64,000 nucleotides of DNA from a virus (IMGVR_UViG_3300020049_013266:10815-74814); one strand, 5' to 3'; counted from the stretch's first letter, positions 9,095 to 54,737 are shown. Notes: a model not told the origin generated them from the sequence alone. Made by a program: numbers and translations.

Positions 9095-9181
9095 CGGAAG
9101 ATGTAGGACTCGAACCTACACGCCATTACGACTAACTGTTTTCAAGACAGCATCCCTTAGACCAACTTGGATTAATCTTCC
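9095..9181 (-). tRNA. tRNA-Ser (anticodon UGA), type II
   Basis: Acceptor GGAAGAU/AUCUUCC, anticodon stem GCUGU/ACAGU with loop CUUGAAA, long variable arm, T-arm GUAGG-UUCGAGU-CCUAC; 86 nt. Confidence 0.7.
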
Positions 9182-9186
9182 TTTTG

Positions 9187-9260
9187 TAGAAGCGGTGGGA
9201 TTTGAACCCACAGCGGAACAGATTTTAAGTCTGATGCGTTTACCCTTTCGCCACGCTCCT
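9187..9260 (-). tRNA. tRNA with anticodon UAA (Leu-type anticodon on a short-variable-loop body)
   Basis: Acceptor AGGAGCG/CGCUUCU (one G-U pair), D-stem GCG/CGC, anticodon stem (U)CAGA/UCUG(U) with loop CUUAAAA, 5-6 nt variable loop, T-arm GUGGG-UUCAAAU-CCCAC; 74 nt. Confidence 0.6.
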
Positions 9261-9266
9261 TTTTAG

Positions 9267-9349
9267 TGGGAGTAGATGGGCTCGAACCACCTACCTATGC
9301 CGGTTACCAGATTTACAGTCTGGCGCTTATCCTGTTTAGCATTACTCCC
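9267..9349 (-). tRNA. tRNA-Tyr (anticodon GUA), type II
   Basis: Acceptor GGGAGUA/UACUCCC, D-stem GCU/AGC, anticodon stem CCAGA/UCUGG with loop CUGUAAA, long variable arm, T-arm GGUGG-UUCGAGC-CCAUC; 83 nt. Confidence 0.75.
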
Positions 9350-29151: not shown

Positions 29152-29450
29152 AATAACGCTTTATTAATTGCTTCTCTAGCTACTTTTACGCACGACCATG
29201 ATTCTGCTTTTTCCGGATCTCCGTATTCATCATCGGCATGTTGGCGATTCATTTCTACTATTTTTTCAAGGGCAGATAATAGCTTTGAAGCAGAAATGGC
29301 TAATTTGGCATTTGCATCCGCTACTTCCTTTCCAACATCATCGTAGTCCAGAATATTCTTCCCTTCATAAAACGGTGAATCTTTTAAAATTATTGTGCCG
29401 GCAAACTCTATAGCGTGCCAATTGTTTTTTGTTCCTTTAAATTCACTCAT
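29148..29450 (-). CDS. hypothetical protein
   Basis: 100-aa ORF. Confidence 0.45.
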   Translation of the reverse strand: MSEFKGTKNNWHAIEFAGTIILKDSPFYEGKNILDYDDVGKEVADANAKLAISASKLLSALEKIVEMNRQHADDEYGDPEKAESWSCVKVAREAINKALL

Positions 29451-29462
29451 AGTTATTTTTTT

Positions 29463-29672
29463 TTAATTCCATATTGTTTTCCAAAACACTGTTTTCCCAG
29501 ATAATATCCAATAAATCCAATCTAAAATAAATAGTAAAAAACAAAAATAACACGCTATCATAGCGCAAACTATTATAATTATAATTGAAGATATCAATAA
29601 GTATAAAAACTGACATATTCTTTCTTTAAAATTTTGAGGGTCTGTGTATTCTAAATTCTTTATCCAATTCAT
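29463..29672 (-). CDS. small membrane protein
   Basis: 69 aa with a long hydrophobic core (LLISSIIIIIVCAMIACYFCFLLFIL). Confidence 0.4.
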   Translation of the reverse strand: MNWIKNLEYTDPQNFKERICQFLYLLISSIIIIIVCAMIACYFCFLLFILDWIYWILSGKTVFWKTIWN

Positions 29673-29855
29673 GGCTCTACATTTATTCCGTTAATACTAA
29701 TTAGTTTTATTCCGAATACCCACTTCCTAATTTCTTTTACTTGAAGATAGGCTGCCGATTCTGTTTCGTCTTCAATTTCAACTCGATCAAAATCCTGTTG
29801 ATCCAGAGCGTATCTGTAAAAATATTCAAATTCGTATGTATTCATAATTTTTTTA

Positions 29856-30080
29856 TTAAAAAGGTATTTTTTCTGTTTTTATTCTCTCTAAATGCTTCTT
29901 TAGAAAAGTAAGCGATTTGAATTTTCCATCAATAGTATAACCAATGCAATTGCTGTTGTAAACTTGTTTTATAATTCGATTAGTTTTTAAATTAACACAC
30001 AAACCGCATTTCGTAAACACATAATTTGGAGAAAACGAAACACAGTATTTACAAGTGTATTGTATTGTTATTATTAGCAT
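29856..30080 (-). CDS. hypothetical Cys-containing small protein
   Basis: 74-aa ORF. Confidence 0.35.
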   Translation of the reverse strand: MLIITIQYTCKYCVSFSPNYVFTKCGLCVNLKTNRIIKQVYNSNCIGYTIDGKFKSLTFLKKHLERIKTEKIPF

Positions 30081-30119
30081 GTGGCTTGTGTTTTTATGCT
30101 CTTAGCGAATAGTTACCGC

Positions 30120-30821
30120 TTATTGCACAACTTCTTCGGTAACGAGAACTTTTCCCGCCCATTGTTGCGCCATAGCTTTGGCAATATTTGGGAAAGTTTT
30201 ACTGCTTTCTATTTGGCTTATATTCTTGAACTGATATTTCTGATCTCTTTTTTTTCCACCAGTATTGCTCGGTAAATAAGGCACGTAGTTTTTTTTAATA
30301 TCAGTTGGTTTCAATTCAGGTAGGTTTTTAAGCCATAATAACGTTCTTTTTGAAAATTCGTGTCCAAATTGATAAGGTTGTATAGTTTGCGTTTCTTTTG
30401 GCAGTCCTACAACTTTTAATGGTAGTGGGTTTTCTAATGAAATTTTATCAATTGGTGCGTTTTTTAATTTCAAGAAGAAATCTTTTGCATCCATCGCTTT
30501 TTTTAATCTTTCAGGACACAAATTACCCGCAGTTGGGTACATCCATCTTGCCCCTGCTCGGCTCATAAATGTGCAAGGCGGGAAAAATATCCCCATATCA
30601 TATTTACCGCTATAAGCTTCTTTCAACACATCGCCTTGAATATGCCATTCGGGGTGTCCGCCTGAACACGGCATTAAATCACAACTATACGCTTCGTGTC
30701 CTAATTTTCTTAATTCAATTGTAACTGCCTGTGATTCCTCGCAACCGACCAGAACAACAAGCGGTAACACGTGATTGTAGCTATTGCCAGATTGGTCTTG
30801 AATTTGATTATTGTTTTGCAT
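30120..30821 (-). CDS. TRD-less C5-cytosine methyltransferase-like protein (paralog 1)
   Basis: Motif I-like LVGCEESQAV, motif II GHEAYSCDL, catalytic motif IV FFPPCTFMSRAG (PCQ.FS.AG-type), motif VI ENPLPL, motif VIII-like QFGHEFSKRTLLWL, motif X-like FPNIAKAMAQQW; only 233 aa, so there is no room for a target-recognition domain. Confidence 0.6.
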   Translation of the reverse strand: MQNNNQIQDQSGNSYNHVLPLVVLVGCEESQAVTIELRKLGHEAYSCDLMPCSGGHPEWHIQGDVLKEAYSGKYDMGIFFPPCTFMSRAGARWMYPTAGNLCPERLKKAMDAKDFFLKLKNAPIDKISLENPLPLKVVGLPKETQTIQPYQFGHEFSKRTLLWLKNLPELKPTDIKKNYVPYLPSNTGGKKRDQKYQFKNISQIESSKTFPNIAKAMAQQWAGKVLVTEEVVQ

Positions 30822-31084
30822 CTTAATTATTGTTTTTTAATTTAATGAATCGGTTTGTTTTTTGGCAACAGCGACAATCACCATACGTTAGGCGATATTT
30901 CACCCGACATTTGGTTTTAATGTTCTGTCTAAATTTCCACAAAGGATACATTTTGAACCTTTGCATTTTCCACGTTTCCAATAAAAATTATAGATATGCG
31001 CACAAGAAGAAACATCGCCTAACAGTGGTTTGGTTTCAGCTTTTTCATTGGTTTTTAATTTATCCATTGTCTTGTATTTGTTGA

Positions 31085-31160
31085 GATTATTATTTATCCG
31101 AAAATTAGTCTTGTATCAGCACCAAGCCGAAACCCAAGCCACGAAACGTTAGCCGTCAGT
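31085..31160 (+). repeat. intergenic repeat element A (TTATCCGAAAAT...GTCTTGTATC...CCAAGCCGAAA...ACGTTAGC)
   Basis: Shares ordered sub-blocks with elements at 32140-32290 and 33400-33552. Confidence 0.6.
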
Positions 31161-31215
31161 TTGAAGAAAAGAAACTGGAAGCGATTAAAATTTAACACAT
31201 TTAAACAAATAAATA

Positions 31216-31616
31216 TGGAATTAAAACTGAAAGCTTATTCTGCATCTAATAATAATATTTGTTTTGAATATGGAACCTTAATTTTAAAAAAAAATATCCT
31301 TTTAGAATTTATCGAGAGCGAAAATGTAAACTTTCTAAAAAGCCAACACGGAGAACATTTTTTCCCAATAAAACCAAATACATACGATGTCGTTTTTTTA
31401 GATGAAACTGATGAACAATACGGAGGTTTCAATGCTAAAATTAATATCAATAATAGTTTACCTATTTATTTTTACATTAAGCTTACTCCTCCCGAAAAGC
31501 AACAACTAAAATGGATGAATAAACAAAAGTGGATTCAAAAAGGAAACAATGTGTGGTATGTTGTAACTGCTATTTTAACGATAGTAGGATTATACATAGC
31601 ATACAAAGCATTGTAA
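31216..31616 (+). CDS. hypothetical protein with C-terminal transmembrane anchor
   Basis: The listed ORF starts at TTG 31161 inside repeat A; the first ATG (MELKLK) at 31216 is preferred. C-terminal WYVVTAILTIVGLYIAY transmembrane helix. Confidence 0.45.
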
Positions 31617-31717
31617 AAATCCAAAACTTTATAAAATCATTAAACTTTTTATCTGACATAATTTCAACTTTTAGGATTTTAAAGTGGCAGAATGATTAAC
31701 CACATAATTTTATATAA

Positions 31718-32140
31718 ATGGAATACTTTTATATTTTTAAAAACATAGATTTTAATTTAATATTTAAAACTGTTTTACAATTTACATTTTTTTATATACT
31801 ATTAATTTATTGTAAACTTTTATATTACCCACAGCTTATACAGTTTAACGAGTTTGAAAAAGGAAAAATTAAAAATAAATTTATATTCTTTATTTTGAGT
31901 TTTTTATATACTTCATTAAGTTTACTAGTTATTCCATTTTTAGTTCTTTTAGCAAATTCATTTGAAAATCCCAATTTTACTGCAACTAAATATGCATTTG
32001 TATCATTTGTTATTATTCTATTATATTGTTTAAAAAAAACTTTTTTATATGCATATCTAAATGGCGAAATTATACCATCTACTATAAGTGAAATGGTAAA
32101 TAAAAATAAACAGAAACTAAATAAAAAACCGAACGGCTAA
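31718..32140 (+). CDS. polytopic small membrane protein
   Basis: 140 aa with 3-4 hydrophobic helices; very AT-rich, so the coding call is tentative. It forms a two-gene plus-strand island inside a minus-strand region. Confidence 0.4.
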   Translation: MEYFYIFKNIDFNLIFKTVLQFTFFYILLIYCKLLYYPQLIQFNEFEKGKIKNKFIFFILSFLYTSLSLLVIPFLVLLANSFENPNFTATKYAFVSFVIILLYCLKKTFLYAYLNGEIIPSTISEMVNKNKQKLNKKPNG

Positions 32141-32290
32141 CACACGCTACAAGCAATTTGGGCATTTGGCTGAATTTAAAGTTGGTCTTGTATCTGATAA
32201 ATTTGTGTTTATCCGAAGATTTGGCTTCCTTAATCCCAAACTGCTTGTAGCGCGGGAACGTTAGGGATAACCGCCTATATTGTGGGTAGT
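32140..32290 (+). repeat. intergenic repeat element B with 10-bp inverted repeat CGCTACAAGC / GCTTGTAGCG and ACGTTAGGGATAACCGCC core
   Basis: Arms at 32145-32154 and 32242-32251; core at 32259-32276. Located between convergent gene ends. Confidence 0.6.
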
Positions 32291-32649
32291 ATTTCCGAAA
32301 CCCATTTTTTAAAGTTTTCAGATTCATTTATTATTCCTTTAAAAGTTTCTAAGTGCCTTTTATCAAATGAATTTAATTCAATTCCTTTTTCTAAGAATAA
32401 TTTCGTGTATCTTTCATAAATATCCCCATCAATACTATCGTCTTTGTATTTTTCAAAAAGTTTTTCAATAATATCTTCTTGCTTATAAGTCATATTTACA
32501 CCTATATTTTCTTTGAATCCATTATAACGAATAAAGTTACTTGCGTTATAATTTAAGATACTTTGCATTAAACTTTTTTCAAAATCATTTGACAATCTTG
32601 ATTTTGAAATTTGTTCTTTTAATTTTAAAAAATCTAGTGAATTTATCAT
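32275..32649 (-). CDS. hypothetical protein
   Basis: 124-aa ORF. Confidence 0.5.
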   Translation of the reverse strand: MINSLDFLKLKEQISKSRLSNDFEKSLMQSILNYNASNFIRYNGFKENIGVNMTYKQEDIIEKLFEKYKDDSIDGDIYERYTKLFLEKGIELNSFDKRHLETFKGIINESENFKKWVSEILPTI

Positions 32650-32777
32650 TATTTATAATTTTAGTTTCGTTCGTGGTATATCCCTAACATATGCTACAAG
32701 CTATATGCAGGCGTTTTGTGCATTGATTCAAGTTTTATCTTGGCATCCGGCGTGTAGCATCCGCCGTTATGCGTGAT
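32650..32777 (+). repeat. repeat element B' (inverted orientation: TATCCCTAACAT, inverted repeat ATGCTACA/TGTAGCAT, GCCGTTATGCG)
   Basis: Contains the core in reverse orientation and a TGTAGC-type inverted repeat like B and D. Confidence 0.5.
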
Positions 32778-33041
32778 TTATGCACGACATAGCCAATAGA
32801 TATTCCAAGACTCTTTTTCTTTAGTATCTACAACACCATCATTATCTATTTTTAAAAAAGTCATTGATTTTTCCATTTCGTAACCCATAACTTTTGCTTT
32901 CCAATTCAATTTTATTTTATCTCCGTTTTTAAAATTGCATTTTGGATTGTACCACATCCTTTCCCAATCAACATACTTGAAAAGTAAACCACGCATAACA
33001 ACGTGTATAGTAAATGGCTTTTTTAGGTTTAATTTAAACAT
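32778..33041 (-). CDS. hypothetical protein
   Basis: 87-aa ORF. Confidence 0.45.
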   Translation of the reverse strand: MFKLNLKKPFTIHVVMRGLLFKYVDWERMWYNPKCNFKNGDKIKLNWKAKVMGYEMEKSMTFLKIDNDGVVDTKEKESWNIYWLCRA

Positions 33042-33100
33042 AGTTTTGTACTTTTAAGATTTAGGTTCATTCACCACAACGACGACAAAGCCGCAGGACG
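33042..33100 (+). repeat. repeat element C (GGACGTTAGTGGCAATTATC core)
   Basis: ACGTTAG core at 33089-33095 between two minus-strand genes. Confidence 0.45.
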
Positions 33101-33379
33101 TTAGTGGCAATTATCATAAACCCACATTTTCAAAAGAACGAATGCACTTGTAATGGCTTCATATTTACCTTTTTCGGTTCTGTCTTTTATTTTTTCTGAA
33201 TGCTGATATGTTCTATCAATTCTATTTTGAATTTCTTTTTCTACTTTATCAAACTTTGATTCTTGTTCTTTAGTTTGCATAATGTCTTTGATAATAGTTT
33301 CTCCTTTTTCGTCAACTAATTCGTAATGCGAAAAATCTCCATTGTCTGCGTATTTCTCAACTGAAATAAATTTTTTCAT
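33101..33379 (-). CDS. hypothetical protein
   Basis: 92-aa ORF. Confidence 0.45.
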   Translation of the reverse strand: MKKFISVEKYADNGDFSHYELVDEKGETIIKDIMQTKEQESKFDKVEKEIQNRIDRTYQHSEKIKDRTEKGKYEAITSAFVLLKMWVYDNCH

Positions 33380-33399
33380 AATATGTTTACTGTTTAAAT

Positions 33400-33552
33400 A
33401 ACTGCCACTAACAATCGCTACATTTCAGCTTTTGCATTGGGCATAAGGTTAATATTGTTTTGTATTTGTAATTATTTCGCTTATCCGAAATACTTGGCTT
33501 ATTTACTCCAAGCCGAAAGTGTAGCGATGGACGTTAATGATAACCGCCCAGT
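33400..33552 (+). repeat. repeat element D (TTATCCGAAATACTTGGCTT...CCAAGCCGAAAGTGTAGCGATGGACGTTAATGATAACCGCCC) with long-range inverted repeat ATCGCTACA/TGTAGCGAT
   Basis: Arms at 33414-33422 and 33520-33528; collinear with elements A and B. Confidence 0.6.
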
Positions 33553-33627
33553 AATTGTCTATTTATGATACTTTGATTTTGGTTTGTCGTATAAAATATA
33601 ATCCTTTACTGTCATGGCTGTTTAGGT

Positions 33628-38100: not shown

Positions 38101-39054
38101 TTACTTTATATTTAAAAATGCTCCTGAATTGTTTCCTAAAACCGTGCTTGGAACTCTTGGAACATCAGGATTAACATCAACCCATTTCAAATATTCTACA
38201 TAAATCGGAGTCAGTTCTGATTTTTTAAGTTTCATAGCTTGTGCTACTGACGCTGCTTCAATTACAACTACTGCGCTATCTCCTTTCGCTAAGGCAACTT
38301 TTCTTTGAGCATCAGCTGTAGCTGCTTTTGCTTGGGATTCAGAAGTAATTGCATCCTGAACAGCTTTCGCTTTTGCGTTTATGGAAGCCGAAATACTTGG
38401 AGGCGGTTGTATGTTGGTTCTTAGCTGAGAAATTGTAAACCATTTTCCAACACGTTTATTCGTTTCTACTACAATAGCTGATTCAAAACCAGCTCTATTA
38501 TTAAAAATATCATCAATAACCCAAGTATTGGCAACATCTGTTACAGAACCTAATATTGCGGTTTCAAGCCATCCTTGTTCAACACCTTCTAGCCCACCAC
38601 TTCTATATGAAGTTCTTAGATTAGTAAACATGTCAGCAGTTGTAGCTCTTTTAACAGAATAATTAAAACTTGGATATATATCACAAGTAAATCCTCCTTT
38701 TGCTACAACTACTTGTTTTCCATATTTAACAGTTCTTTGGTCTAGCGGTATTTCTTGAAGTTCTTCCGTATAATTATTATAAAATACGAACCCTGAAACG
38801 TCTTTAATATTTGATGCCCCTCTATTATCGCCTACTAAATTAACTAATAATCCTTGATGTCCAGCATCAATCTTACCTAAGGAATAGGGTTGAAAAAAAA
38901 TAAAAAGAAGTGCAATTATTGAAAATACAATCGGTTTGTATTTAATTCCATCAAAGCGCCCATATTCGTCTTTTGTAATGAAGGAAAATCTTTTTTGAGC
39001 TATCATTGTTCCTACTATAATAGCGAATACGATTAATAAAATAATTGTTATCAT
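38101..39054 (-). CDS. SPFH/band-7 (HflK/HflC/stomatin-like) membrane protein
   Basis: N-terminal transmembrane helix, SPFH-core-like region, and an Ala/Lys/Gln-rich HflK/C-type C-terminus (AKAKAVQDAITSESQAKAATADAQRKVALAKG). Confidence 0.55.
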   Translation of the reverse strand: MITIILLIVFAIIVGTMIAQKRFSFITKDEYGRFDGIKYKPIVFSIIALLFIFFQPYSLGKIDAGHQGLLVNLVGDNRGASNIKDVSGFVFYNNYTEELQEIPLDQRTVKYGKQVVVAKGGFTCDIYPSFNYSVKRATTADMFTNLRTSYRSGGLEGVEQGWLETAILGSVTDVANTWVIDDIFNNRAGFESAIVVETNKRVGKWFTISQLRTNIQPPPSISASINAKAKAVQDAITSESQAKAATADAQRKVALAKGDSAVVVIEAASVAQAMKLKKSELTPIYVEYLKWVDVNPDVPRVPSTVLGNNSGAFLNIK

Positions 39055-40302: not shown

Positions 40303-40593
40303 TTAATTAAATTTTGGTTTGTAAGCGGTGATTACTGGTTCTCTGTTGTATGTGTACTGCTTTGTTCCGCAAATAGCACATTCTCTGCTCCATCGAGCTT
40401 TTTCGACATCCCTGTATCCGGCAAAACTCCAGTGAGGATCTGATCCCGCTCCATCCTGAACACTTCCGTATCCTTCTTTGACAGTTTCAGGATCATAAAT
40501 AGCTGCTTTGAATGAGTGGGTACAATTTTTTATTTTGTTTTTCTCCGACTCAATCTGTCTTTGTAATTCGTTTATTTTATCATTAGGATTCAT
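40303..40593 (-). CDS. hypothetical protein
   Basis: 96-aa ORF downstream of the integrase gene; 11-nt overlap. Confidence 0.4.
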   Translation of the reverse strand: MNPNDKINELQRQIESEKNKIKNCTHSFKAAIYDPETVKEGYGSVQDGAGSDPHWSFAGYRDVEKARWSRECAICGTKQYTYNREPVITAYKPKFN

Positions 40594-41836
40594 TACTGTT
40601 CCATTTGTTATGCATTATTTCAGCATATTCTTGTTTGCTTTTTTTGTTATAATGATTTAACATATTGCTGTTTTTGCTCCATCCCATAATGGCTGACAAA
40701 GTTTCGTTGTCAACTTTTCCATAGAAGTTGGACGCGAATGATTTGCGACAAACGTGCGAGGAAATAAGTTGCCACTTCCTGTAATAGCCAAAAACCTTAC
40801 GCTTACGTTTTTTATCAAACAACTTCCCGTACATCTGCTTATCTATTTCACAGATTTGGCAAATTGTTTTAATGTGAATATTGAAATCGGTTTTACTTAT
40901 TTTTGGTGGCAGATTACCGAAGTTTGATTCAATTACTTTTTTTAATACCGGATGAATGGGAACCACGATTCTTTTGCCTGTTTTCTGCGTTTTAATTTTG
41001 AATACACCATCTGAAATATTAGAAGTGTCTAATTTAGAGAAATCCCCAAATCTCATTCCTGAAAACACGCCAACCAAGAAGTTTTGCTTTGTAATATCCA
41101 ATTCGTAATTATCTGAAAAATCGTGATCAATAATGCTTTGTATTTCGGCTTCATTCAAATAAACTCCCTCAGCATCTTCGTCTTTATCGAAATAGATTCT
41201 TTGTTTAAACGAATTACTTACTTCGATATTGTGTTCGAGTGCGCGATTAAGGAAAAATCGGAACCGGCCAACGTGTCTTTCAATTGTGGAAACCTGGTAA
41301 AACTCAGTTTCTAAATAATCCGCAAATGATTTCAGGTCCGAAACGCGAATATTTCTCAACTGCAGTCGCTCTCCGATTACTGATTCATATTCCGAAACAA
41401 TGGAGACGAATTTTTTGTACTGGTTATGCAACGGCAATCCCATTTTTTTCTTACTTGATACATTCCAATCGTCAGCATGATTTTCCAGCCACCACAGCGC
41501 AAAATCTACTAAATATATAGTATGTGCCGGATTAATCATTTTTAACTCTTCTTTAGGGCGATTAAAGCTGTTTTTTATGGCAGATGCAACCCAGAATTTA
41601 TCAACTATAATTCCCCTGCTAAAATCGTTATTGTACTGTTTTAGAAGATCTGTTTTTAATTGTTGCAGCGAAATGTTCAATCCCGGATTATTAATAACGC
41701 TCTGATTATCTAAATCCCATTCAGCATCTTTCAACATGATATTTGTTGAACATGAAATATCCAATTTAGAATATCTCATTCTAACAAGGAGTTTCTTAAC
41801 CTCCTTTCTTCCTTGTAATGAAAATGTAATGTTCAT
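40583..41836 (-). CDS. int: tyrosine-type site-specific integrase
   Basis: 417 aa with a catalytic-domain signature: GMRFGD (Arg I), HVCRKSFASN (H..R box II), MGWSKNSNMLNHY (H/W...Y catalytic Tyr); N-terminal arm/SAM-like region. Confidence 0.7.
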   Translation of the reverse strand: MNITFSLQGRKEVKKLLVRMRYSKLDISCSTNIMLKDAEWDLDNQSVINNPGLNISLQQLKTDLLKQYNNDFSRGIIVDKFWVASAIKNSFNRPKEELKMINPAHTIYLVDFALWWLENHADDWNVSSKKKMGLPLHNQYKKFVSIVSEYESVIGERLQLRNIRVSDLKSFADYLETEFYQVSTIERHVGRFRFFLNRALEHNIEVSNSFKQRIYFDKDEDAEGVYLNEAEIQSIIDHDFSDNYELDITKQNFLVGVFSGMRFGDFSKLDTSNISDGVFKIKTQKTGKRIVVPIHPVLKKVIESNFGNLPPKISKTDFNIHIKTICQICEIDKQMYGKLFDKKRKRKVFGYYRKWQLISSHVCRKSFASNFYGKVDNETLSAIMGWSKNSNMLNHYNKKSKQEYAEIMHNKWNSNES

Positions 41837-42084
41837 GATTTCCTTTTTTTAAATTACCAATCTAATCCGTGAAGAATTTTTATACTCGTAACTGTAACAG
41901 AATACTCTTCTCCTAATATCTGTATCATTTCTTTTGATAAAATATCAAATCTTTCTCTGTCCAGTTTCTTAGCGGAAACATGAAGTTCTTTACTGAATTC
42001 TTTTTGTAAACTAACTTTCCTATCGTTGAAATTTTTAAGAGCTGTTCTATACGTGTAGTATTTTTGTTTTTATTTTACTCATGA

Positions 42085-42294
42085 CTATTTCTCTTTTTCA
42101 ATTAAATCATTCAATACTCTTAAATTATTCCCTGCTATAGAACCAGGAATAACACCAGTAGACCTGAAAGAAATCAATCCTTGGCTTATTGTCCGTCTGT
42201 TCGATAATTTCAGCAACATATTCTGAAACATTTTCTCTACTTTTTTAAAGGTTTTTGTTCCTTCAATTTCTTCGTTTGATACAATGAATTCCAT
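42085..42294 (-). CDS. hypothetical protein
   Basis: 69-aa ORF downstream of the HTH gene. Confidence 0.4.
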   Translation of the reverse strand: MEFIVSNEEIEGTKTFKKVEKMFQNMLLKLSNRRTISQGLISFRSTGVIPGSIAGNNLRVLNDLIEKEK

Positions 42295-42298
42295 AAGG

Positions 42299-42538
42299 TT
42301 ATTTTGTATTAGTGTTGGTTATTAATTCGATTAAATCTATTCCAAGAGCCATGAAAATTGTGTGTATTTTATCAAAAGGAACTCCCTTGTGAGCGCCATT
42401 TTCAATACGGGAAATCAACGTGTGCTGATCTGTGTTTCCAGACATTATAACAGACAAATCTTTCTGAGTAAGCTTTTTACTCTTTCGTTTAGATTTTATT
42501 ACAACGCCTATCTGAATTGCAGTATTTTCTTTTGCCAT
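42299..42538 (-). CDS. XRE-family helix-turn-helix transcriptional regulator (Cro/CI-like)
   Basis: LTQKDLSVIMSGNTDQHTLISRIENG is a canonical HTH_3 motif; located near the integrase. Confidence 0.6.
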   Translation of the reverse strand: MAKENTAIQIGVVIKSKRKSKKLTQKDLSVIMSGNTDQHTLISRIENGAHKGVPFDKIHTIFMALGIDLIELITNTNTK

Positions 42539-42554: not shown

Positions 42555-42746
42555 TTAAAAAGGGCAATCTGATTTTTTTGCTTTAGGGATTAGATATTCA
42601 TAATCCCTTCTAATTTTCTCCTGAATCGCTTTTCTTATAAAATCAGCGACATTTACCTGATAACTATCTAACTTTTTCAAAGTATTATGCTGAATTTCTG
42701 TAATCTTAATTACTTTGACTTTCGTATATTTTATAGACTTCCCCAT
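42555..42746 (-). CDS. hypothetical small DNA-binding-like protein
   Basis: 63-aa ORF. Confidence 0.35.
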   Translation of the reverse strand: MGKSIKYTKVKVIKITEIQHNTLKKLDSYQVNVADFIRKAIQEKIRRDYEYLIPKAKKSDCPF

Positions 42747-42829
42747 GAATAAGTAATACTTTTATAGCTGTTAGCGAATAGTTATATTCCAGCTTCGAGC
42801 AACTTTCTGGCGAAAGCTACTCTGGCTGT

Positions 42830-43027
42830 TTATTTGTTGCATTTTCTTTCTAATTGTCTTTTACACCATTCTTCGGCTTCTTCGACTGTTTTAGCAGGTT
42901 GTGCTTTAAAAAAATCATCCAAAGTTGGTTTTACTTCGTCATACTTTTTCGATTTGTCCCAATCCTCTAAAATCTTTTCTTCTGTATTATTCTTAAAATA
43001 TGCTTTAAGTTCTTCAAGTAAGTTCAT
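42830..43027 (-). CDS. hypothetical protein
   Basis: 65-aa ORF. Confidence 0.4.
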   Translation of the reverse strand: MNLLEELKAYFKNNTEEKILEDWDKSKKYDEVKPTLDDFFKAQPAKTVEEAEEWCKRQLERKCNK

Positions 43028-43119
43028 ATCAGTAATTTTTAAATTAATAATTGTCGTAAAAAAGCCGAGAATATAACAGCTACTACAATCAATAGCTTCA
43101 TTTGGCTTTGGTTATTATT

Positions 43120-43200
43120 GTTTTGTGCTTGCATTGTTCGGGCAAACTCCGATAATTTGGCAACTCAGCACGCTACTGTTTGTAGTAGCAAAACGTTATG
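43120..43200 (+). repeat. repeat element E (hairpin GCTACT-GTTTGT-AGTAGC, AAACGTTATGCG core)
   Basis: Core at 43193-43200, overlapping the stop of the 43196..43537 gene. Confidence 0.5.
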
Positions 43201-43537
43201 CGTTATTGTAGCGAGCCTTGAATAAATCATAGGCTTTATCCATTTCGCCACCTTCTGAATTTAATAAATTAATAAGGTCGTTATCTTTATCAAGCACTTT
43301 CCAGAAATCTAAATCACAACATTCACGTTTTGTATTTCTATCAAAGTCAGGAATATCTTCTTCTGTTTCTTGGTCAGTATCGAAGTATTTTGAGCAGGTC
43401 GCTTCTTCTGCATAAATACCTCCATAATCACTATCCCCAACTTCCTCGTGCTGAAAATGTTGGCAAAAAGAACAACAACGCATAACACTTGCTAAACAAG
43501 ATTCGGGTTTGGTTTTTGTATTTAAAGTCTGTTTCAT
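43196..43537 (-). CDS. Cys-rich acidic hypothetical protein
   Basis: 113-aa ORF. Confidence 0.45.
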   Translation of the reverse strand: MKQTLNTKTKPESCLASVMRCCSFCQHFQHEEVGDSDYGGIYAEEATCSKYFDTDQETEEDIPDFDRNTKRECCDLDFWKVLDKDNDLINLLNSEGGEMDKAYDLFKARYNNA

Positions 43538-43544
43538 TTTTGTA

Positions 43545-43620
43545 ATTATTAGTTATTAATCGAAAATCTGTTTTTTATTTTGTCCCGAACCTCGCTTAGC
43601 AAGAGACCGTTAGCAAACAG
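43545..43620 (+). repeat. repeat element F (GACCGTTAGCAAACAG core)
   Basis: Core at 43606-43614. Confidence 0.45.
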
Positions 43621-43905
43621 CTACACAATACCGTCCAAAGAATAAGCGGTTAATATCGATTCCTCTTCAATTGGACATAATACATATCTTTCTGGAGAAT
43701 GATAATATCTCGATTCTGCTTTAACGTAAGCTTGTTTTAATGCTTCCTCAACGTGCATTTTTGCAAATTCAATCATACAATCAATAATATCAGATTCGTC
43801 TAAATTATCTATTATGAGCCTAAAATCACATCCTTCGTTTCCTTCTTTTATGAAATCTATTGCTTTTCTCATTTTTTTGTAAATATTTAGCCGATTTGCT
43901 AACAC
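43621..43905 (-). CDS. hypothetical protein
   Basis: 94-aa ORF. Confidence 0.45.
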   Translation of the reverse strand: MLANRLNIYKKMRKAIDFIKEGNEGCDFRLIIDNLDESDIIDCMIEFAKMHVEEALKQAYVKAESRYYHSPERYVLCPIEEESILTAYSLDGIV

Positions 43906-44035
43906 TGCATAACAGTAATTTAGGCATCAGGCTTGATTTATAATTTGTTTTGTACTTGCGAACTTGGTCTTTAACCTCGATAGATTAGGTTTACTTTTCC
44001 TAAACTACTGTTATGCTTTAACGTTAGCAGTTATA
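43906..44035 (+). repeat. repeat element G (inverted repeat GCATAACAGTA 43907-43917 / TACTGTTATGC 44006-44016; TAACGTTAGCAG core 44021-44030)
   Basis: 11-bp arms about 90 nt apart, followed directly by the ACGTTAGC core. Confidence 0.55.
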
Positions 44036-44395
44036 CTACCGTAGACCATCATCTTCACGTTCACAAGGAATACTATCATTAAAATAATATCCTTTTTCCA
44101 TACAATGATAAGTTTGTTCATTAACATAAAAATCTTCTGTAATTGTATCTTTTCCTTTAATAGCAGTAACAGTTAATATAAAATCCTCATCATCAAATCC
44201 CGTATGTGGCATCATAATAAAAGACTTTCCGCATGGCATTGAAGTAAAATATGTATAAGTTCTTGGTTCTTCATAAGTTTTTGATACAATTTTTCCGCTG
44301 TGAATTTCGTGACCACAACCAATAAAAAGTACAACTACTAACAGCACATAAGCAAAAGCAATTAATTGGGTCTTAAATTTAAAGTTTGTTTTCAT
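44036..44395 (-). CDS. putative lipoprotein
   Basis: N-terminal signal-like MKTNFKFKTQLIAFAYVLLVVVLFIGCG with a lipobox-like LFIGC. Confidence 0.45.
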   Translation of the reverse strand: MKTNFKFKTQLIAFAYVLLVVVLFIGCGHEIHSGKIVSKTYEEPRTYTYFTSMPCGKSFIMMPHTGFDDEDFILTVTAIKGKDTITEDFYVNEQTYHCMEKGYYFNDSIPCEREDDGLR

Positions 44396-44477
44396 TTTTT
44401 AATTATTTATGATTAATTTAAAGTTTAGTTATTATCGGCAATTGCCTTCGATTATCTGCAAAGCGTTAGCGATAATG
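44396..44477 (+). repeat. repeat element H (GGCAATTGCC palindrome, AAGCGTTAGCGATAATGCTAAG core)
   Basis: Core at 44462-44470. Confidence 0.5.
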
Positions 44478-44915
44478 CTAAGAAACTGCATCTAACAAAT
44501 CTTGTTTTGTAATAATGAATTTGTCTTTATAATTTTCATAGTAAAGTTCAGGGAATAAAGCATTAATCTTATCAAAATCTATATTTCCAGATAATACTTT
44601 CATTATTTTTTCAACCTCGTTTTCGTTGTTGTTTTCAGAAAATCTATCATCGTCTATTCTTTCGGCTATCCAGTCGGCAGATAATGATAATATCGGCTCT
44701 AATTTTGAACCTTTGCAATTAAAAGTCGCATCATCTTCTAAGTCTTCTATTTGTTCTTTTTCTCCGTCAAAAACTCTATCGATAAAGTCTTCTAAATCGG
44801 TGTAAAAATCACCGTCTTTAAAGAAGTTCTCCATAAAACGAGAAGCACTATCGCTAACAGCCGATAAGCAAGATTGGTCATTAGTTTTTTCTGAATTATT
44901 GTCTTGTGTTTGCAT
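44478..44915 (-). CDS. acidic hypothetical protein
   Basis: 145-aa D/E-rich ORF. Confidence 0.45.
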   Translation of the reverse strand: MQTQDNNSEKTNDQSCLSAVSDSASRFMENFFKDGDFYTDLEDFIDRVFDGEKEQIEDLEDDATFNCKGSKLEPILSLSADWIAERIDDDRFSENNNENEVEKIMKVLSGNIDFDKINALFPELYYENYKDKFIITKQDLLDAVS

Positions 44916-44989
44916 AAATTTGTTTTTAATTTAATTATTAGTTTTTATTTTTACCAACCTCGCCTATCGCCAGAACGTTAGCAGTAATG
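44916..44989 (+). repeat. repeat element I (GAACGTTAGCAGTAATGCTAAGG core)
   Basis: Core at 44975-44982; nearly identical to the cores of H and G. Confidence 0.5.
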
Positions 44990-45253
44990 CTAAGGAATAG
45001 CGGAGAAAATCAAATCTTCTTCATAAGTGTATTTATTGTCGTTTTCAGATATCAAATAAATTGTAAAACACAAGGTATTTGATATTATTTGTTTATGAAT
45101 CATTACGGTTTTTACTTTGAACTTTGTGTAGCATTTTGTTATATTGCTTTTATAAAACAATTCAACCCCTGTTAAATCATTGTAAATAGAAGCACTACTG
45201 CTAACAACGGCTTGACTTTCAGCTTTACATTGGGTCTTTAATTTATTGCTCAT
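44990..45253 (-). CDS. hypothetical protein
   Basis: 87-aa ORF. Confidence 0.4.
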   Translation of the reverse strand: MSNKLKTQCKAESQAVVSSSASIYNDLTGVELFYKSNITKCYTKFKVKTVMIHKQIISNTLCFTIYLISENDNKYTYEEDLIFSAIP

Positions 45254-45340
45254 TTTTTATTATTTTTTATGGTTTTTAATCCGTTACATTCTTTTGTGTT
45301 TGCACAGCCGAAAATCAAGCCGCAACCGTTATCAGGAATA
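45254..45340 (+). repeat. repeat element J (CCGAAAATCAAGCCG...AACCGTTATCAGG)
   Basis: Shares CCGAAAAT and AAGCCG blocks with element A plus a degenerate core. Confidence 0.4.
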
Positions 45341-47930: not shown

Positions 47931-48161
47931 CTACTCATTAAAATTATTCATTTTTGCTATTAAATAGTATCTTTGCATACTTCCAGACCAAATAAAAATA
48001 CCTCCTAATTCTTCATCGTATCTAATCCCGAAAGTTGAAATTATATTTTTAGGAGTTTCCTGGATTTGAACAAAATTAGATTTTTGGCTTAATTGCTCAT
48101 AAGTTTCTAAAGAAATCAATTTTGTACGTTGCTCTAATTGATAGGTTGTTAAATGCGCCAT
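47931..48161 (-). CDS. hypothetical protein
   Basis: 76-aa ORF. Confidence 0.4.
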   Translation of the reverse strand: MAHLTTYQLEQRTKLISLETYEQLSQKSNFVQIQETPKNIISTFGIRYDEELGGIFIWSGSMQRYYLIAKMNNFNE

Positions 48162-48264
48162 GATAAGAAATAGCTGTTTTATCCTGTTGCTTCTTCAGTT
48201 TTGTGTTACCGCCCCCGAAGGGACACGCTTTGAGCCTAAAACCTTTTTATTGTCGCTCAAACGA

Positions 48265-48942
48265 CTATTTTATTCTTGAAACGTTGTAAATATCAAACAT
48301 TTTTCCACCTGCAACACTTTGCCATTTTAAACCAATAGCCTTAAATATTGAAGGATAACAACTAACACCAACTCCACCTTCGAAATAAGGTAAAACGCCA
48401 TACCCTGAACCATACCCAAAAATATCTCTATTTGATTTGTTTTTGTTTGCAGATTTATAAAGATTTGCTTTTAATACATCACTTTGGTTTAAAGCCTCAG
48501 CTATTGCAGTGCTTAATTTATCATAACCACAACCAGAAACATAACGACTTTTAAAATACTCACAATCGGTATTGCCTTTAGCATCTTTAAAAGAAACCCA
48601 TACTTCAGCAGTAGGATTTAATCCCCACATTTTAGACTTTGCCCACTCAACCGTTATTTTGATTTCAGTTATTTTAAATAACTTATTTTCAACACTTTTA
48701 ACTTCTTTTATCTTTTCAGAAAGTCTCAAGGCACTTTTTTCTTTTATTTTAGAAACAAGAACTTTTTTAAATTTACTAAAAGTCATTTCTTCAATTCCTT
48801 TAATCTCTTTTTTAGAAAATAAACCTCTATAGTAAGCATAATCCAAAAATGATTTTACATCTTTTTTTTCTTCATTAAAAGACAAGCTTTTTTTAAGTTC
48901 TACTTTTGATTCTCTATTTAATTTTGCTATAAGTGTTTTCAT
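48265..48942 (-). CDS. hypothetical protein (225 aa)
   Basis: Longest ORF in the small-gene region; Gly-rich C-terminal half. Confidence 0.5.
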   Translation of the reverse strand: MKTLIAKLNRESKVELKKSLSFNEEKKDVKSFLDYAYYRGLFSKKEIKGIEEMTFSKFKKVLVSKIKEKSALRLSEKIKEVKSVENKLFKITEIKITVEWAKSKMWGLNPTAEVWVSFKDAKGNTDCEYFKSRYVSGCGYDKLSTAIAEALNQSDVLKANLYKSANKNKSNRDIFGYGSGYGVLPYFEGGVGVSCYPSIFKAIGLKWQSVAGGKMFDIYNVSRIK

Positions 48943-54471: not shown

Positions 54472-54557
54472 TTAAGTGTTGGCTGAGTGGTTGAAAGCAA
54501 CGGGCGACCATACCCGTGGGAGGTAATTACCCCGAAGGTTCGAATCCTTCACACTTA
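54472..54557 (+). tRNA. tRNA-like gene (type II, Ser-like body) with non-canonical anticodon loop CGACCAU
   Basis: Acceptor UAAGUGU/ACACUUA, D-arm GCU-GAGUGGUUGAA-AGC (Ser-like), anticodon stem ACGGG/CCCGU with a loop lacking U33, long variable arm, T-arm GAAGG-UUCGAAU-CCUUC; no encoded CCA. Confidence 0.45.
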
Positions 54558-54737
54558 TCTTAGCAAGGTATAAACATTAAGGAAAATTCGTCACAGGTTT
54601 ATATTAAGTTGCAGACGGACCTACATGCTACAGGTTAAAAAGGCTTACTCATAAAGTCTAGCAAGCACAAACTAACGAGGAAAGCCGGATGCGATAACAT
54701 CAATTCCGGTTTAATTTAACCAAAAACCAAAATAACC

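Follow-up and report, generated by a model that had tools for sequence, protein, structure and literature searches.

Hairpin-forming elements in two accessory-gene arrays of a Flavobacterium phage resemble integron attC sites and may delimit mobile cassettes

The window, by which we mean the whole analysed stretch of 64,000 nucleotides from a Flavobacterium phage, contains 12 hairpin-forming elements of about 90–135 bases located between small accessory genes. They are arranged in two arrays of six, at positions 30763–33538 (array 1) and 43072–45333 (array 2), and in all of them the minus strand is the gene-sense strand. All 12 copies were detected, with E values from 2e-8 to 7e-21, by a covariance model (R1) built from 39 sequences of other phage contigs; no window sequence was used in its training, and the bit scores and E values given below for the window copies are R1 scores.

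In gene-sense order, array 1 starts with core E (33407–33538; 74.8 bits, E 1e-15), which is of the long type, has the arms ATCGCTACA/TGTAGCGAT and is 84.6% identical to positions 1736–1871 of contig L040. Core D (32994–33105; 52.1 bits, E 4e-10) has degenerate arms and contains the start codon of the ORF 32778–33041, and its outer flank pairs with a flank of core C. The latter (32683–32771; 45.5 bits, E 2e-8) is of the short type and is a member of our alignment A1. Core B (32136–32265; 94.6 bits, E 1e-20) lies between convergent genes and has 18-bp arms that are 94% complementary, and core A (31018–31153; 84.1 bits, E 5e-18) contains the start of the ORF 30900–31067; its arms, GTGGTTTGG/CCAAGCCAC, are unlike those of B and E, yet they pair. 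Core Z (30763–30892; 92 bits, E 6e-20) holds in its interior the ATG of a DNA methyltransferase gene (30120–30821). Array 2 starts with core K (45200–45333; 66.1 bits, E 1.5e-13), followed by core J (44853–44982; 95.7 bits, E 7e-21), whose 17-bp stem includes three G.U pairs on the gene-sense strand. Core I (44337–44470; 65.7 bits, E 2e-13) encodes the N-terminal signal peptide of the lipoprotein ORF 44036–44395; it is 82% identical to positions 2029–2178 of L038, the proteins being alike only over their first 31 residues. Core H (43898–44028; 78 bits, E 2e-16) is followed by core G (43481–43614; 93.2 bits, E 3e-20), which contains the start of the ORF 43196–43537 and is 75% identical to positions 6257–6383 of L002, and the last element of the array is core F (43072–43200; 68.5 bits, E 4e-14).

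The minus-strand cargo of array 1 (span 30120–33379) comprises the ORFs 33101–33379, 32778–33041, 32275–32649 and 30900–31067 and the methyltransferase gene, which was assigned to phrog_757, while two plus-strand genes (31215–31616 and 31718–32140) lie within one cassette, at 31153–32136. Comparison with Pfam and PHROG gave no function for the cargo of array 1 except the methyltransferase, and no homologues of this cargo were found in the relatives L175–L177. The cargo of array 2, on the minus strand (span 42830–45253), consists of the ORFs 44990–45253, 44478–44915, 44036–44395, 43621–43872, 43196–43537 and 42830–43027; no Pfam family was found among them, and no homologous gene bodies were found in the other array-bearing contigs. 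Relatives with replication proteins 83–95% identical carry no elements, and in the corresponding early region their genes are tightly packed; judged by this comparison, the arrays are accessory. A Pistol self-cleaving ribozyme is present at 48204–48266, in the same leftward gene block.

The first-pass annotation had described at least five intergenic segments, in both orientations, that share ordered sequence blocks. The blocks are present where it placed them, but most of them prove little when taken singly: TTATCCGAANAT with up to two mismatches gave 40 matches as compared with 41 expected, and ACGTTAG gave 10 as compared with 4.4, while exact copies of GATAACCGCC and CCAAGCCGAAA are restricted to the region in which that annotation had seen them. 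The complete element, however, occurs far above chance expectation, as a scan of the window for TAAC...GTTA plus a stem gave 8 matches scoring at least 12, versus 0.2 in 40 dinucleotide shuffles, and no window copy had an E value above 2e-8 with the covariance model. The family is larger than had been noticed, since the element at 30763–30892, which overlaps the methyltransferase start, and the whole array of six at 43072–45333 had been missed. The segments had also been drawn too short (31085–31160 is the 3′ part of 31018–31153, and 33042–33100 is a part of 32994–33105), and they are not purely intergenic, as several downstream genes start inside them. All copies proved to be co-oriented. Their G+C content is raised, as had been proposed, but only modestly (0.27–0.45 versus about 0.31 locally).

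On the gene-sense strand, a unit reads CTAAC-G, bulge, arm A, interior, arm B, T-GTTAG, a flank that we call F5, the gene body with its stop codon, a flank that we call F3, and the next CTAAC. The element itself runs from CTAAC-G, through a bulge of about 4 nt and a covarying stem of 15–23 bp around an interior of 30–90 nt, to T-GTTAG; the inverted repeats of 9–11 bp seen previously exist, but are only parts of these arms. In 71 cores, TAAC and GTTA are conserved to about 100%, forming AAC-G...T-GTT on the folded strand. The spacer measures about 4–5 nt on the 5′ arm and 0–1 nt on the 3′ arm, and the arms align without gaps and contain no extrahelical bases. The cores are 56–135 nt long, their interiors varying in length and sequence between element types and being well conserved within one type. 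The interior holds the 5′ UTR of the cargo gene, often with its ATG and first codons: upstream stop codons lie 8–10 nt 5′ of CUAAC, start codons with A-rich leaders lie inside the interior, and 39 of the 71 cores have an ATG frame that extends beyond the core.

The compensatory base changes that the first-pass annotation had proposed to look for were found. In alignment A1, 10 of 14 pairs show compensatory double changes, and 92.9% of cells are paired, as compared with 69.7% after shuffling and 22–43% in slid controls; none of 500 shuffles reached the observed score. In alignment A3 (39 sequences), double changes were seen in 15 of 20 pairs, and RNAalifold predicted the closing helix UAACG:UGUUA, with a G.U pair, in 39/39 sequences. 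A conserved mismatched (non-Watson–Crick) T lies 7 nt outside TAAC, the partner of this U(−7) being G in 62% and almost never A, and one T-A pair within the arm is conserved. The two strands are not equivalent: the gene-sense strand has 126 G.T-type versus 39 A.C-type pairs, and computationally it folds more stably in 45 of the 71 cores (p = 0.0012). This G.U bias and the invariant G.U pairs are equally compatible with an RNA structure.

Repeats of 90–135 nt with terminal inverted repeats, present in many copies and transcribed along with neighbouring genes, could be miniature inverted-repeat transposable elements of the Correia, ERIC or REP-like kind that have colonised intergenic regions. 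We consider this highly improbable. Transposase-binding ends are conserved, whereas the arms described here differ between copies and covary, and the copies keep strictly to a single orientation, with one at each gene boundary and a gene starting inside. Moreover, a search of representative bacterial genomes with an 18-mer of one subtype gave 21 matches, all chance-like, although the element does occur in a Flavobacterium columnare prophage.

The 10–15 nt that border GTTA and TAAC on the outside find their complement at the far end of the intervening gene rather than at the other end of the element. When the 12 nt following GTTA in one element are set against the 12 nt preceding TAAC in the next, on average 8.0/12 positions are complementary, as compared with 3.4/12 for the two flanks of the same element and 3.55/12 for random pairs, and this cross-gene pairing was replicated in L178. 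In the cassette of the ORF 32275–32649, the F3 flank GGCGGTTATCCC (gene sense; 32264–32275, minus strand) pairs with the F5 flank GGGATATACCAC (32673–32684, minus strand), and in that of the ORF 44478–44915, the F3 flank at 44469–44480 (minus strand) pairs with 44843–44854, GCGATAATGCTA and GCGATAGTGCTT forming 10/12 Watson–Crick pairs and a conserved G.U pair at position 7. The terminus of array 1 (30100–30113, minus strand) consists of the F3 of the methyltransferase cassette (AAGCGG) and TAAC, followed by TATTCGCTAA; AAGCGG-TAAC pairs with GTTA-CCGCTT after core Z. Both arrays end with the identical 14-mer TAACTATTCGCTAA. In array 2 it occupies 42773–42786 (minus strand), directly upstream of a conserved 63-aa ORF (42555–42746), whose homologues occur in L002, L008, L039, L042 and L047, all of them element-bearing. 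Before the first core of array 1 lies an orphan F3-type flank (GGGCGGTTATCAT in gene sense; 33537–33549, minus strand), which resembles the widespread F3 GGCGGTTATCCC.

All these pairings could also serve at the level of mRNA, where the elements would be hairpins that process or stabilise a polycistronic early transcript or control its translation. This is the main rival to the interpretation that we prefer, and we regard it as rather unlikely. According to it, the arm just after the upstream stop codon would pair with codons ~10–17 of the next gene, leaving the start codon in a large loop, F5:F3 pairing would close each cistron, and shuffling would arise incidentally, when conserved sequences recombine with one another. 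The folded strand is indeed the mRNA-sense strand, with the excess and the greater stability given above and with G.U at a fixed position beside UAAC:GUUA, and the placement of stop and start codons fits such a role. If the leftward block is co-transcribed, the Pistol ribozyme lies in the same single transcript, which would indicate that this RNA is processed. The repeated intercistronic hairpins with an internal loop that RNase III processes in the polycistronic early transcript of T7-like phages are similar. T7 RNase III sites, however, do not enclose the next start codon, and have no invariant CTAAC/GTTAG, cross-gene pairing or link to a recombinase. In close relatives, this early region is expressed although its genes are tightly packed and elements are absent; expression thus does not require them. 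At the RNA level there is no rationale for the invariant CTAAC/GTTAG, for the exclusive adjacency to a tyrosine recombinase or for the precise TAAC junction (see below). Where the ORF starts in the core, F5 is coding, and the message would therefore not survive a cut in the arms or in F5:F3. The cassette 31153–32136 shows the same flank pairing as elsewhere, even though its genes are on the plus strand. Finally, the alternative of small structured RNAs raised in the first-pass annotation finds no counterpart among the curated Rfam models, which gave no match in the element regions at gathering thresholds and only three chance-level snoRNA/sRNA matches at E up to 10; that alternative nevertheless keeps some plausibility.

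The same element was found in related phages, and comparisons between them show what is exchanged. Elements and flanks are conserved between phages, the genes between them are unrelated, and the element types follow one another in different orders. Most flank pairs belong to a single cassette, and cores that are 100% identical can be bordered by unrelated flanks on either side. Between related modules, homology ends at TAAC and GTTA, within comparisons that are coarser than a single A|C bond. For example, the similarity of a cassette shared by L043 and L044 (95% identical) ends on one side at GTTAG, beyond which the flank is unrelated; on the other side it drops at TAACA, where the neighbouring cores are related and clearly less alike. 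One flank pair, GGGATATACCAC/GGCGGTTATCCC, is common to 14 cassettes from 14 contigs, with varied genes of which few are mutually similar, and 20–30 nt are shared there, including the last 3–4 codons of the cargo genes. Its recurrence around mostly unrelated genes could result from homologous recombination within these conserved flanks.

Such recombination is known from the promoter-early-stem-loop elements (PeSLs) of T4-like phages, to which the first-pass annotation had compared the family. PeSLs consist of a host early promoter and a compact G/C-rich terminator stem-loop, and flank orphan genes in hyperplastic regions (PMC2839356). The setting is the same here: within a hypervariable region, small orphan genes lie between short conserved structured elements that mark points of modular exchange, modules are shuffled, and circular intermediates made up of a gene and an element are plausible (Arbiol et al. 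2010; Comeau et al. 2014). The elements could thus be conserved intergenic regulatory cassettes that offer short patches of homology to general recombination, with no dedicated recombinase, as PeSLs do (PMC2839356). The restriction of conservation to elements and flanks, the variable order of element types and the flanks shared by 14 contigs are in line with this, but we judge it improbable. PeSLs carry a consensus sigma-70 promoter and a G4...C4 terminator hairpin and recombine by homology, whereas the elements have long covarying arms around a gene start, invariant CTAAC/GTTAG, flanks paired across genes and an associated tyrosine recombinase. A host-type promoter, the Bacteroidetes −7 box TAnnTTTG, is present on the gene-sense strand of merely 2 of the 71 cores, and the stem does not have the geometry of a terminator, as it encloses 30–90 nt, often with the next start codon, and is followed by T-GTTAG, not by a U-tract. 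We therefore rejected identity with PeSLs; the analogy applies to the setting and fails for promoter and terminator. Furthermore, homology needs no hairpin, yet arms and flanks covary extensively and with a strand bias. Flank pairs mostly occur in one cassette only and therefore give different phages no shared homology, and identical cores with unrelated flanks and breaks at a motif of 4–5 nt also speak against this explanation, which leaves the strict association with a recombinase and the polarity unexplained.

In L035, L040, L044, L013, L178 and L180, a Xer/IntI-like tyrosine recombinase of 266–267 aa follows the array terminus. Across 80 recombinase loci, 137/137 elements lie upstream of the recombinase and on its strand, and none was found in the 413 kb searched downstream; detectable elements are present at only 30 of the 57 loci having upstream sequence, and homologues of the recombinase number in the thousands. 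At the related loci, the last cassette ends in a variable F3-TAAC, directly followed by a conserved segment of about 56 nt that precedes the recombinase ATG, and the two form an attI-like junction. Contig L181 starts exactly at the TAAC of this junction, and L189, L198 and L243 start 56 nt before the recombinase, that is, at about the same point. In the F. columnare prophage the recombinase gene is internal; it is therefore not a prophage-end integrase. The related 267-aa proteins score 147–150 bits against the integron-integrase model TIGR02249 (cut-off 265), match IntI4 in two stretches, fall below the cut-offs of every curated family and are most similar to Xer proteins. No homologue of this small recombinase was found in the window; a 417-aa integrase encoded there did not match the integron-integrase model, and matched XerC/D weakly and nothing else. 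Polaribacter phage P12002L has related elements and no annotated integrase. The position of arrays upstream of the recombinase could be plain early-operon synteny, as with lambda int.

A folded site for a Xer-family tyrosine recombinase has a parallel in the attP of CTX-type phages, a forked single-stranded DNA hairpin used by XerC/D at dif. There, however, one site per genome serves chromosomal integration by host enzymes, and no arrays delimit cassettes. A closer parallel is provided by integron attC sites. These are imperfect single-strand hairpins in which an R box, 5′-RYYYAAC-3′, pairs with 5′-GTTRRRY-3′, strands are exchanged between A and C of the AAC triplet, unpaired central spacers of 5–6 nt separate R and L boxes on each arm, two or three extrahelical bases (G16, T23/24) protrude from the L″ arm, the terminal structure is variable (57–141 bp in total), and the bottom strand is the favoured folded substrate (PMC5027507). 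The elements are likewise imperfect hairpins of one strand, with ...YTAAC and GTTAR... as inverse core and core, AAC-G...T-GTT on the folded strand, adjoining positions that covary as F3/F5, a covarying inner stem, a loop that varies between copies and a comparable length. They differ in having no extrahelical arm bases, a one-sided bulge of about 4–5 nt as a spacer, and an R-box-like duplex that extends over 10–15 bp with the conserved non-Watson–Crick T; they also lie at the 5′ end of a gene, often with its start codon, and, as computed, favour the coding strand, with the genes on the folded strand, opposite to canonical integrons. Without extrahelical bases, with an asymmetric spacer and with no IntI, they are not canonical attC sites.

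The arrays are integron-like in their small co-oriented orphan genes, frequent DNA methyltransferases and cores generally devoid of a host-type promoter box, in that the start of a cassette is complementary to its own inverse core, and, in the relatives, in the Xer/IntI-clade recombinase with its adjoining junction site. Complete integrons combine an adjacent intI gene with an attI site and a Pc promoter. As compared with them, the relatives have a shorter recombinase that is co-oriented with the array and located downstream of it, and the window has neither an intI with the IntI-specific domain nor the 267-aa recombinase. If the elements count as attC sites, the two six-site arrays without IntI correspond to CALINs (at least two attC sites and no intI nearby). 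A site of the phage P12002L, described as virulent, had been predicted independently as attC by HattCI and gave no IntI1 recombinants (P12002L_attC1; Qi et al. 2023, PMC9892861), and the attC primers of that study carry the same AAC-G...T-GTT signature (Qi et al. 2023, PMC9892861). P12002L_attC1 shares the architecture of our elements.

Taken together, the invariant CTAAC/GTTAG, the flanks pairing across genes and the link to a Xer/IntI-like recombinase lead us to favour, with modest confidence, the interpretation that the elements are integron-attC-like folded-hairpin recombination sites delimiting mobile cassettes of a phage accessory-gene platform. Among the alternatives raised in the first-pass annotation, recognition sites for phage nucleases, taken broadly as nuclease or recombinase sites, come closest to this evidence. 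If a unit is circularised, F3-CTAAC would pair with GTTAG-F5 and arm A with arm B. The product would be a single long, imperfect hairpin in which an unpaired spacer separates an R-box-like duplex from an L-box-like stem, with a variable loop. Strand exchange by a tyrosine recombinase would then take place within the invariant AAC triplet or beside it, and cassettes could be excised, inserted beside the primary site and reshuffled. Site-specific recombination, a single-stranded DNA substrate and this recombinase as the enzyme are what the sequences suggest; all the support for the attC-like reading is comparative, and no recombination event is among it. The two arrays of the window would be recombinase-less, CALIN-like clusters that are acted on in trans or are now inert. 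As the arrays are transcribed, the same hairpins would also form in mRNA and may affect expression.

The gain, loss and reshuffling of small accessory genes by phages is a long-standing question, and the usual answer is illegitimate or short-homology recombination. The arrays point instead to a sequence- and structure-specific phage cassette system, whose site, polarity, junction and candidate enzyme can each be tested. In its wider form, which we advance more tentatively, as a possibility falling somewhat short of even likelihood, Flavobacteriia phages own an analogue of the integron, in which cassettes are taken up and reshuffled at a primary TAAC site by a compact Xer-like recombinase that lacks the IntI-specific domain, via hairpins of about 70–135 nt that lie at gene 5′ ends and contain the translation start, the window holding two orphan arrays. 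If true, this would carry the integron principle over from bacterial chromosomes to virus genomes, from IntI-type integrases to other recombinases, and to sites at the 5′ ends of genes, and would account for the sites in Flavobacteriia phages that attC-prediction tools occasionally report and IntI1 does not use. With a recombinase family as abundant as this one (137 elements, 80 viral loci), the system could serve phages generally as a dedicated means of exchanging accessory genes. The covariance model can be used to mark cassette boundaries in phage metagenomes, and counter-defence and host-takeover functions are likely to be found among the cargo, which includes DNA methyltransferases, a lipoprotein and many orphan genes.

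The sequence blocks and inverted repeats named by the first-pass annotation were present at the sites in 31085-33560, and the element as a whole exceeded chance with high significance; most of the blocks taken singly occurred at chance frequency, and we therefore used whole-element tests instead. A motif scan for TAAC...GTT[AG], separated by 40-190 nt and accompanied by an adjacent stem, returned 8 window matches scoring ≥12, versus 0.2 expected (40 dinucleotide shuffles). A covariance model trained on 39 elements, all from contigs other than the window, found 12 copies with E from 2e-8 to 7e-21, arranged as array 1 (30763-30892, 31018-31153, 32136-32265, 32683-32771, 32994-33105, and 33407-33538) and array 2 (43072-43200, 43481-43614, 43898-44028, 44337-44470, 44853-44982, and 45200-45333). 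Thus, five of the six copies in array 1 had been noticed at first pass, two of them only partly, whereas array 2 had been missed entirely, and the claim that copies occur in both orientations was wrong, as all of them lie on the minus strand (12/12). The elements fit no Rfam family at gathering or permissive thresholds, a scan of bacterial genomes with ACGTTAGNGATAACCGCC returned chance matches only, and a query of an annotated phage collection with array 2 was likewise negative.

Each core, read in gene sense, opens with (C)TAAC-G and closes with T-GTTA(G). In between, a bulge of ~4 nt precedes arm A, and arms A and B enclose 30-90 nt of interior that carries an A-rich leader. Among 71 cores, TAAC, GTTA, the G following TAAC, and the T preceding GTTA are 97-100% conserved, and one A in arm B and a T located 7 nt upstream of TAAC are conserved at 96% each. 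The upstream gene has its stop codon 8-10 nt ahead of CTAAC. Seven window cores (Z, A, and D of array 1; G, I, J, and K of array 2) have an interior ATG that runs in frame into the downstream ORF, and the interior of core I encodes a lipoprotein signal peptide; clearly, the elements are not purely intergenic, as had been assumed, since genes start inside them. In several cores (31024-31053 (-) and 33413-33442 (-) in the window, and L036:2077-2204 in another contig), 9-codon mini-ORFs end on the TAG of TGTTAG (MKKLKPNHC*, MQKLKCSDC*, and MQAIDTSTC*) and the cargo gene starts downstream of the core; in further copies, this ATG opens a frame that continues into the cargo gene. A leader peptide was rejected, as the frame of the 9-codon ORF is inconsistent across copies. 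One element type, found in three contigs (L036:2077-2204, L040:2864-2989, and L042:619-750), contains a near-perfect hairpin within its interior, which is GGTTTTTCCGAAGGAAAAAAC as such in L036 and L042 and has one G.T pair in L040; this hairpin-bearing interior is ~84-96% conserved between contigs.

The arms of the cores covary. In the alignment of short-type elements (13 sequences), RNAalifold predicted a 14-pair stem with compensatory changes in 10 pairs, three consecutive pairs being flipped between phages. The proportion of paired cells was 92.9%, compared with 69.7% in shuffled alignments (0/500 shuffles matched the observed value) and 22-43% in a control in which the partner was slid. 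In the alignment of long-type elements (39 sequences), double changes were found in 15 of 20 pairs, and a G.U pair occurs within the closing helix UAACG:UGUUA of 39/39 sequences. With strand-neutral scoring, the arms form 1147 Watson-Crick pairs, and in addition 126 G.U/G.T pairs on the gene-sense strand versus 39 on the opposite one; the gene-sense strand has the more stable fold in 45/71 cores (mean difference -2.2 kcal/mol, p = 0.0012). This strand bias and the fixed G.U pairs fit a function of the elements in mRNA, the main rival to their reading as DNA recombination sites. We consider this function unlikely as the explanation. It leaves the invariant motif unexplained; still, since the hairpins are transcribed, both readings could hold at once.

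Pairing also extends from the cores into their flanks. Viewed on the plus strand, the 12-nt flank that follows GTTA of one element is complementary, over the gene in between, to the 12-nt flank that precedes TAAC in the next one, at a mean of 8.0/12 positions (n=42 adjacent pairs), compared with 3.4 for the two flanks of a single element and 3.55 (sd 1.9) for random pairs. In the window, the automated test covered five adjacent pairs and one non-adjacent pair, the latter because core A had been missed, and by eye the pairing was seen in every inspected adjacent pair of both arrays. The terminal AAGCGG-TAAC of the methyltransferase cassette likewise pairs with GTTA-CCGCTT. The pairing was replicated in an independent Flavobacterium columnare prophage. 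As the flank sequences vary among cassettes, the flanks covary. At flank position 7, almost all cassettes have G.T (gene-sense) or a bulge of one base, with the conserved T almost never opposite A. If a core, the flank after its GTTAG (F5), the gene, and the flank before the next CTAAC (F3) were closed to a circle, F3-CTAAC/GTTAG-F5 and arm A/arm B would form one continuous imperfect hairpin.

An integron attC site is defined as a bottom-strand hairpin of 57-141 bp with extrahelical bases and a terminal structure that varies; RYYYAAC pairs with GTTRRRY in its R box, strands are exchanged in the AAC triplet, and both arms have a spacer of 5-6 nt (PMC5027507). Our elements share with them the motif, hairpin, strand bias, length, and arrangement in arrays, but differ in the spacers and extrahelical bases. 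Two attC sites were predicted in Polaribacter phage P12002L by Qi et al. 2023 (PMC9892861). One of them, attC1, which was predicted by HattCI only and gave no IntI1 recombinants (PMC9892861), maps to 30005-30059 of this phage (L174), and its architecture, GCCTAAC-A-arm...arm-AGCC-GTTAGCA, is exactly that of the elements; our own scan found further copies beside methyltransferase genes of P12002L. DNA methyltransferases are recurrent as cargo, inside arrays or immediately beside them (window 30120-30821; contigs L035:8064-8768, L036:5648-6658, and L041:951-1670 and 5717-6433; P12002L 29248-32126 and 38118-38816), and the same was remarked by Qi et al. for phage attC clusters (PMC9892861). The likeness to PeSLs noted in the first-pass annotation holds for the setting but not for the parts: the host promoter box is all but absent (2/71 cores on the gene-sense strand), and the terminator geometry was not seen. 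A reading as replication origin or DnaA boxes was considered, with TTATCC motifs near the replication genes, but rejected: the copies are spread over two arrays, one per gene, and match the DnaA box poorly.

Many IMG/VR contigs carry arrays of up to 10-11 elements, in a single orientation within an array. Between phages, the elements are conserved at 70-89% identity, whereas the genes are not, and the sequence of element types along the arrays varies. Cores that are 80-100% identical have unrelated flanks; a core shared by contigs L038 and L041 is identical over 83 nt, with both flanks at chance-level identity. A cassette common to contigs L043 and L044 is ~95% identical and changes abruptly at both ends: at the GTTAG end the neighbouring sequence is unrelated, and at the TAACA end the adjoining cores are still recognisably related, though with far greater divergence. 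The elements could alternatively be linkers acting through homology only, which we regard as improbable, or MITE-like repeats, which is hardly credible. Locating the crossover by core-flank linkage was dropped, as only 15 pairs were available and one widespread flank type biased them. In 14 contigs, cassettes are bracketed by the same flanks, GTTAGGGATATACCAC... and ...ACAATATAGGCGGTTATCCCTAAC, and the genes inside are mostly unrelated, although a few resemble one another at fold level. The last three or four codons of the bracketed genes (window 32275-32290 and 14 loci) are conserved (...LSTI*, ...LSTN*, ...PTI*, and ...LIQ*), indicating that the conserved 3' module extends into coding sequence.

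In three related contigs (L035, L040, and L044), a gene for a 266-267 aa tyrosine recombinase comes after the end of the array on its strand (at 3402-4202 in L044), and a fourth (L013) has a homologue that is 43-46% identical. The protein has Phage_integrase and Phage_int_SAM_4 domains. Its best NCBIfam matches are archaeal XerA/integron integrase (176-186 bits, below the cut-off of 220), XerD, XerC, and TIGR02249, the integron integrase (140-150 bits, cut-off 265), and its closest solved structures are archaeal XerA-like, then IntI4 (in two stretches), and then XerD. In L035, L040, L044, L178, L179, and L180, the variable F3-TAAC of the last cassette adjoins a conserved segment of ~56 nt (TACTAT[A/T]TGT...) that reaches the recombinase ATG; the junction site reads TAACTACTATATGT.... 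Contig L181 starts exactly with the TAAC 55 nt upstream of this ATG; in L189, L198, and L243, whose first bases were not read, the contig start is 56 nt from the recombinase start, at nearly the same position. Contig starts at TAAC would be expected if populations differ in the cassette joined there, or if the genome physically ends at this point. The recombinase gene of the F. columnare chromosome (CP197485.1; L178:9001-9804) lies inside a prophage, with a primase and a seven-element array upstream and head genes downstream, so it is not a prophage-end integrase. In 80 IMG/VR loci fetched via the recombinase protein and scanned with the covariance model, all the elements (137/137) were upstream of the recombinase on its strand, with none downstream (413 kb searched) and none on the other strand; among the 57 loci whose upstream sequence spans 1 kb or more, 30 had one element or more. 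A role in mRNA leaves this polarity unexplained.

The window represents a Flavobacteriia-type tailed phage or prophage with a G+C content of about 31-36%. Its PHROG matches include a virion protein, sliding clamp, DnaC-like loader, replisome organiser, DNA methyltransferase, and integrase; its closest DNA matches are Polaribacter and Flavobacterium phages, and Flavobacterium genomes contain homologues of its DnaC-like protein. The arrays belong to a block of small genes that is read leftward (minus strand) and lies downstream of the replication genes, and Pfam, PHROGs, and NCBIfam gave no function for the cargo genes except the methyltransferase and a neighbouring HTH regulator. An exact-protein look-up of the DnaC-like gene had no match, and through its homologues (83-86% identical) we reached relatives that lack the elements. 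Three such relatives, with tightly packed genes and replication proteins about 82-95% identical to those of the window, have no elements and no counterpart of 29856-33627 (the methyltransferase and array 1). The absence of elements from close relatives is also left unexplained by an mRNA-level function. Array 1 and the DnaC-like gene are separated by an 18-codon ORF (MTVKDYILYD..., 33553-33627 (-)). Over its first codons this ORF is similar to the beginning of a 72-aa gene of one relative (L175, 9232-9450), suggesting that array 1 replaced most of the equivalent gene.

Just downstream of array 2, on the same strand, are genes for a 417-aa phage integrase and a Cro/CI-type HTH protein (42299-42538; together 40583-42538 (-)), so the phage looks temperate, and array 2 occupies the integrase-proximal accessory region. 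This integrase had no match to the integron-integrase model, and the window has no homologue of the recombinase. Both window arrays terminate in an identical 14-mer, TAACTATTCGCTAA. Directly after the terminus of array 2 lies a 63-aa ORF (42555-42746 (-)) without a Pfam family, whose homologues (52-60% identical) were found in contigs L002, L008, L039, L042, and L047, all element carriers; it could be a small DNA-binding or directionality factor. In the leftward gene block of array 2, ORFs 48265-48942 and 47931-48161 flank a Pistol self-cleaving ribozyme (48204-48266 (-); Rfam RF02679, 62.8 bits versus a gathering score of 34.5). Elsewhere, ARAGORN called a cluster of five tRNA genes at 8915-9349 (-) (Leu-TAG, Ser-GCT, Ser-TGA, Leu-TAA, and Tyr-GTA), only three of which are confirmed by Rfam, and a separate tRNA-like gene with a four-base anticodon (ACCA) at 54473-54559 (+).

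The best-supported reading, in which we have moderate confidence, is that the elements are DNA recombination sites of an integron-like cassette system. The comparisons establish the fold with its covariation and strand bias, the pairing between flanks, the breakpoints at the motif, the accessory character of the arrays, and their association with the recombinase. On this reading, each site would consist of a core and its flanks folded from single-stranded DNA, and site-specific exchange in the AAC triplet would probably be catalysed by the small Xer/IntI-like protein. Primary insertion would take place at the conserved TAAC junction, and the window phage would carry two recombinase-less arrays.
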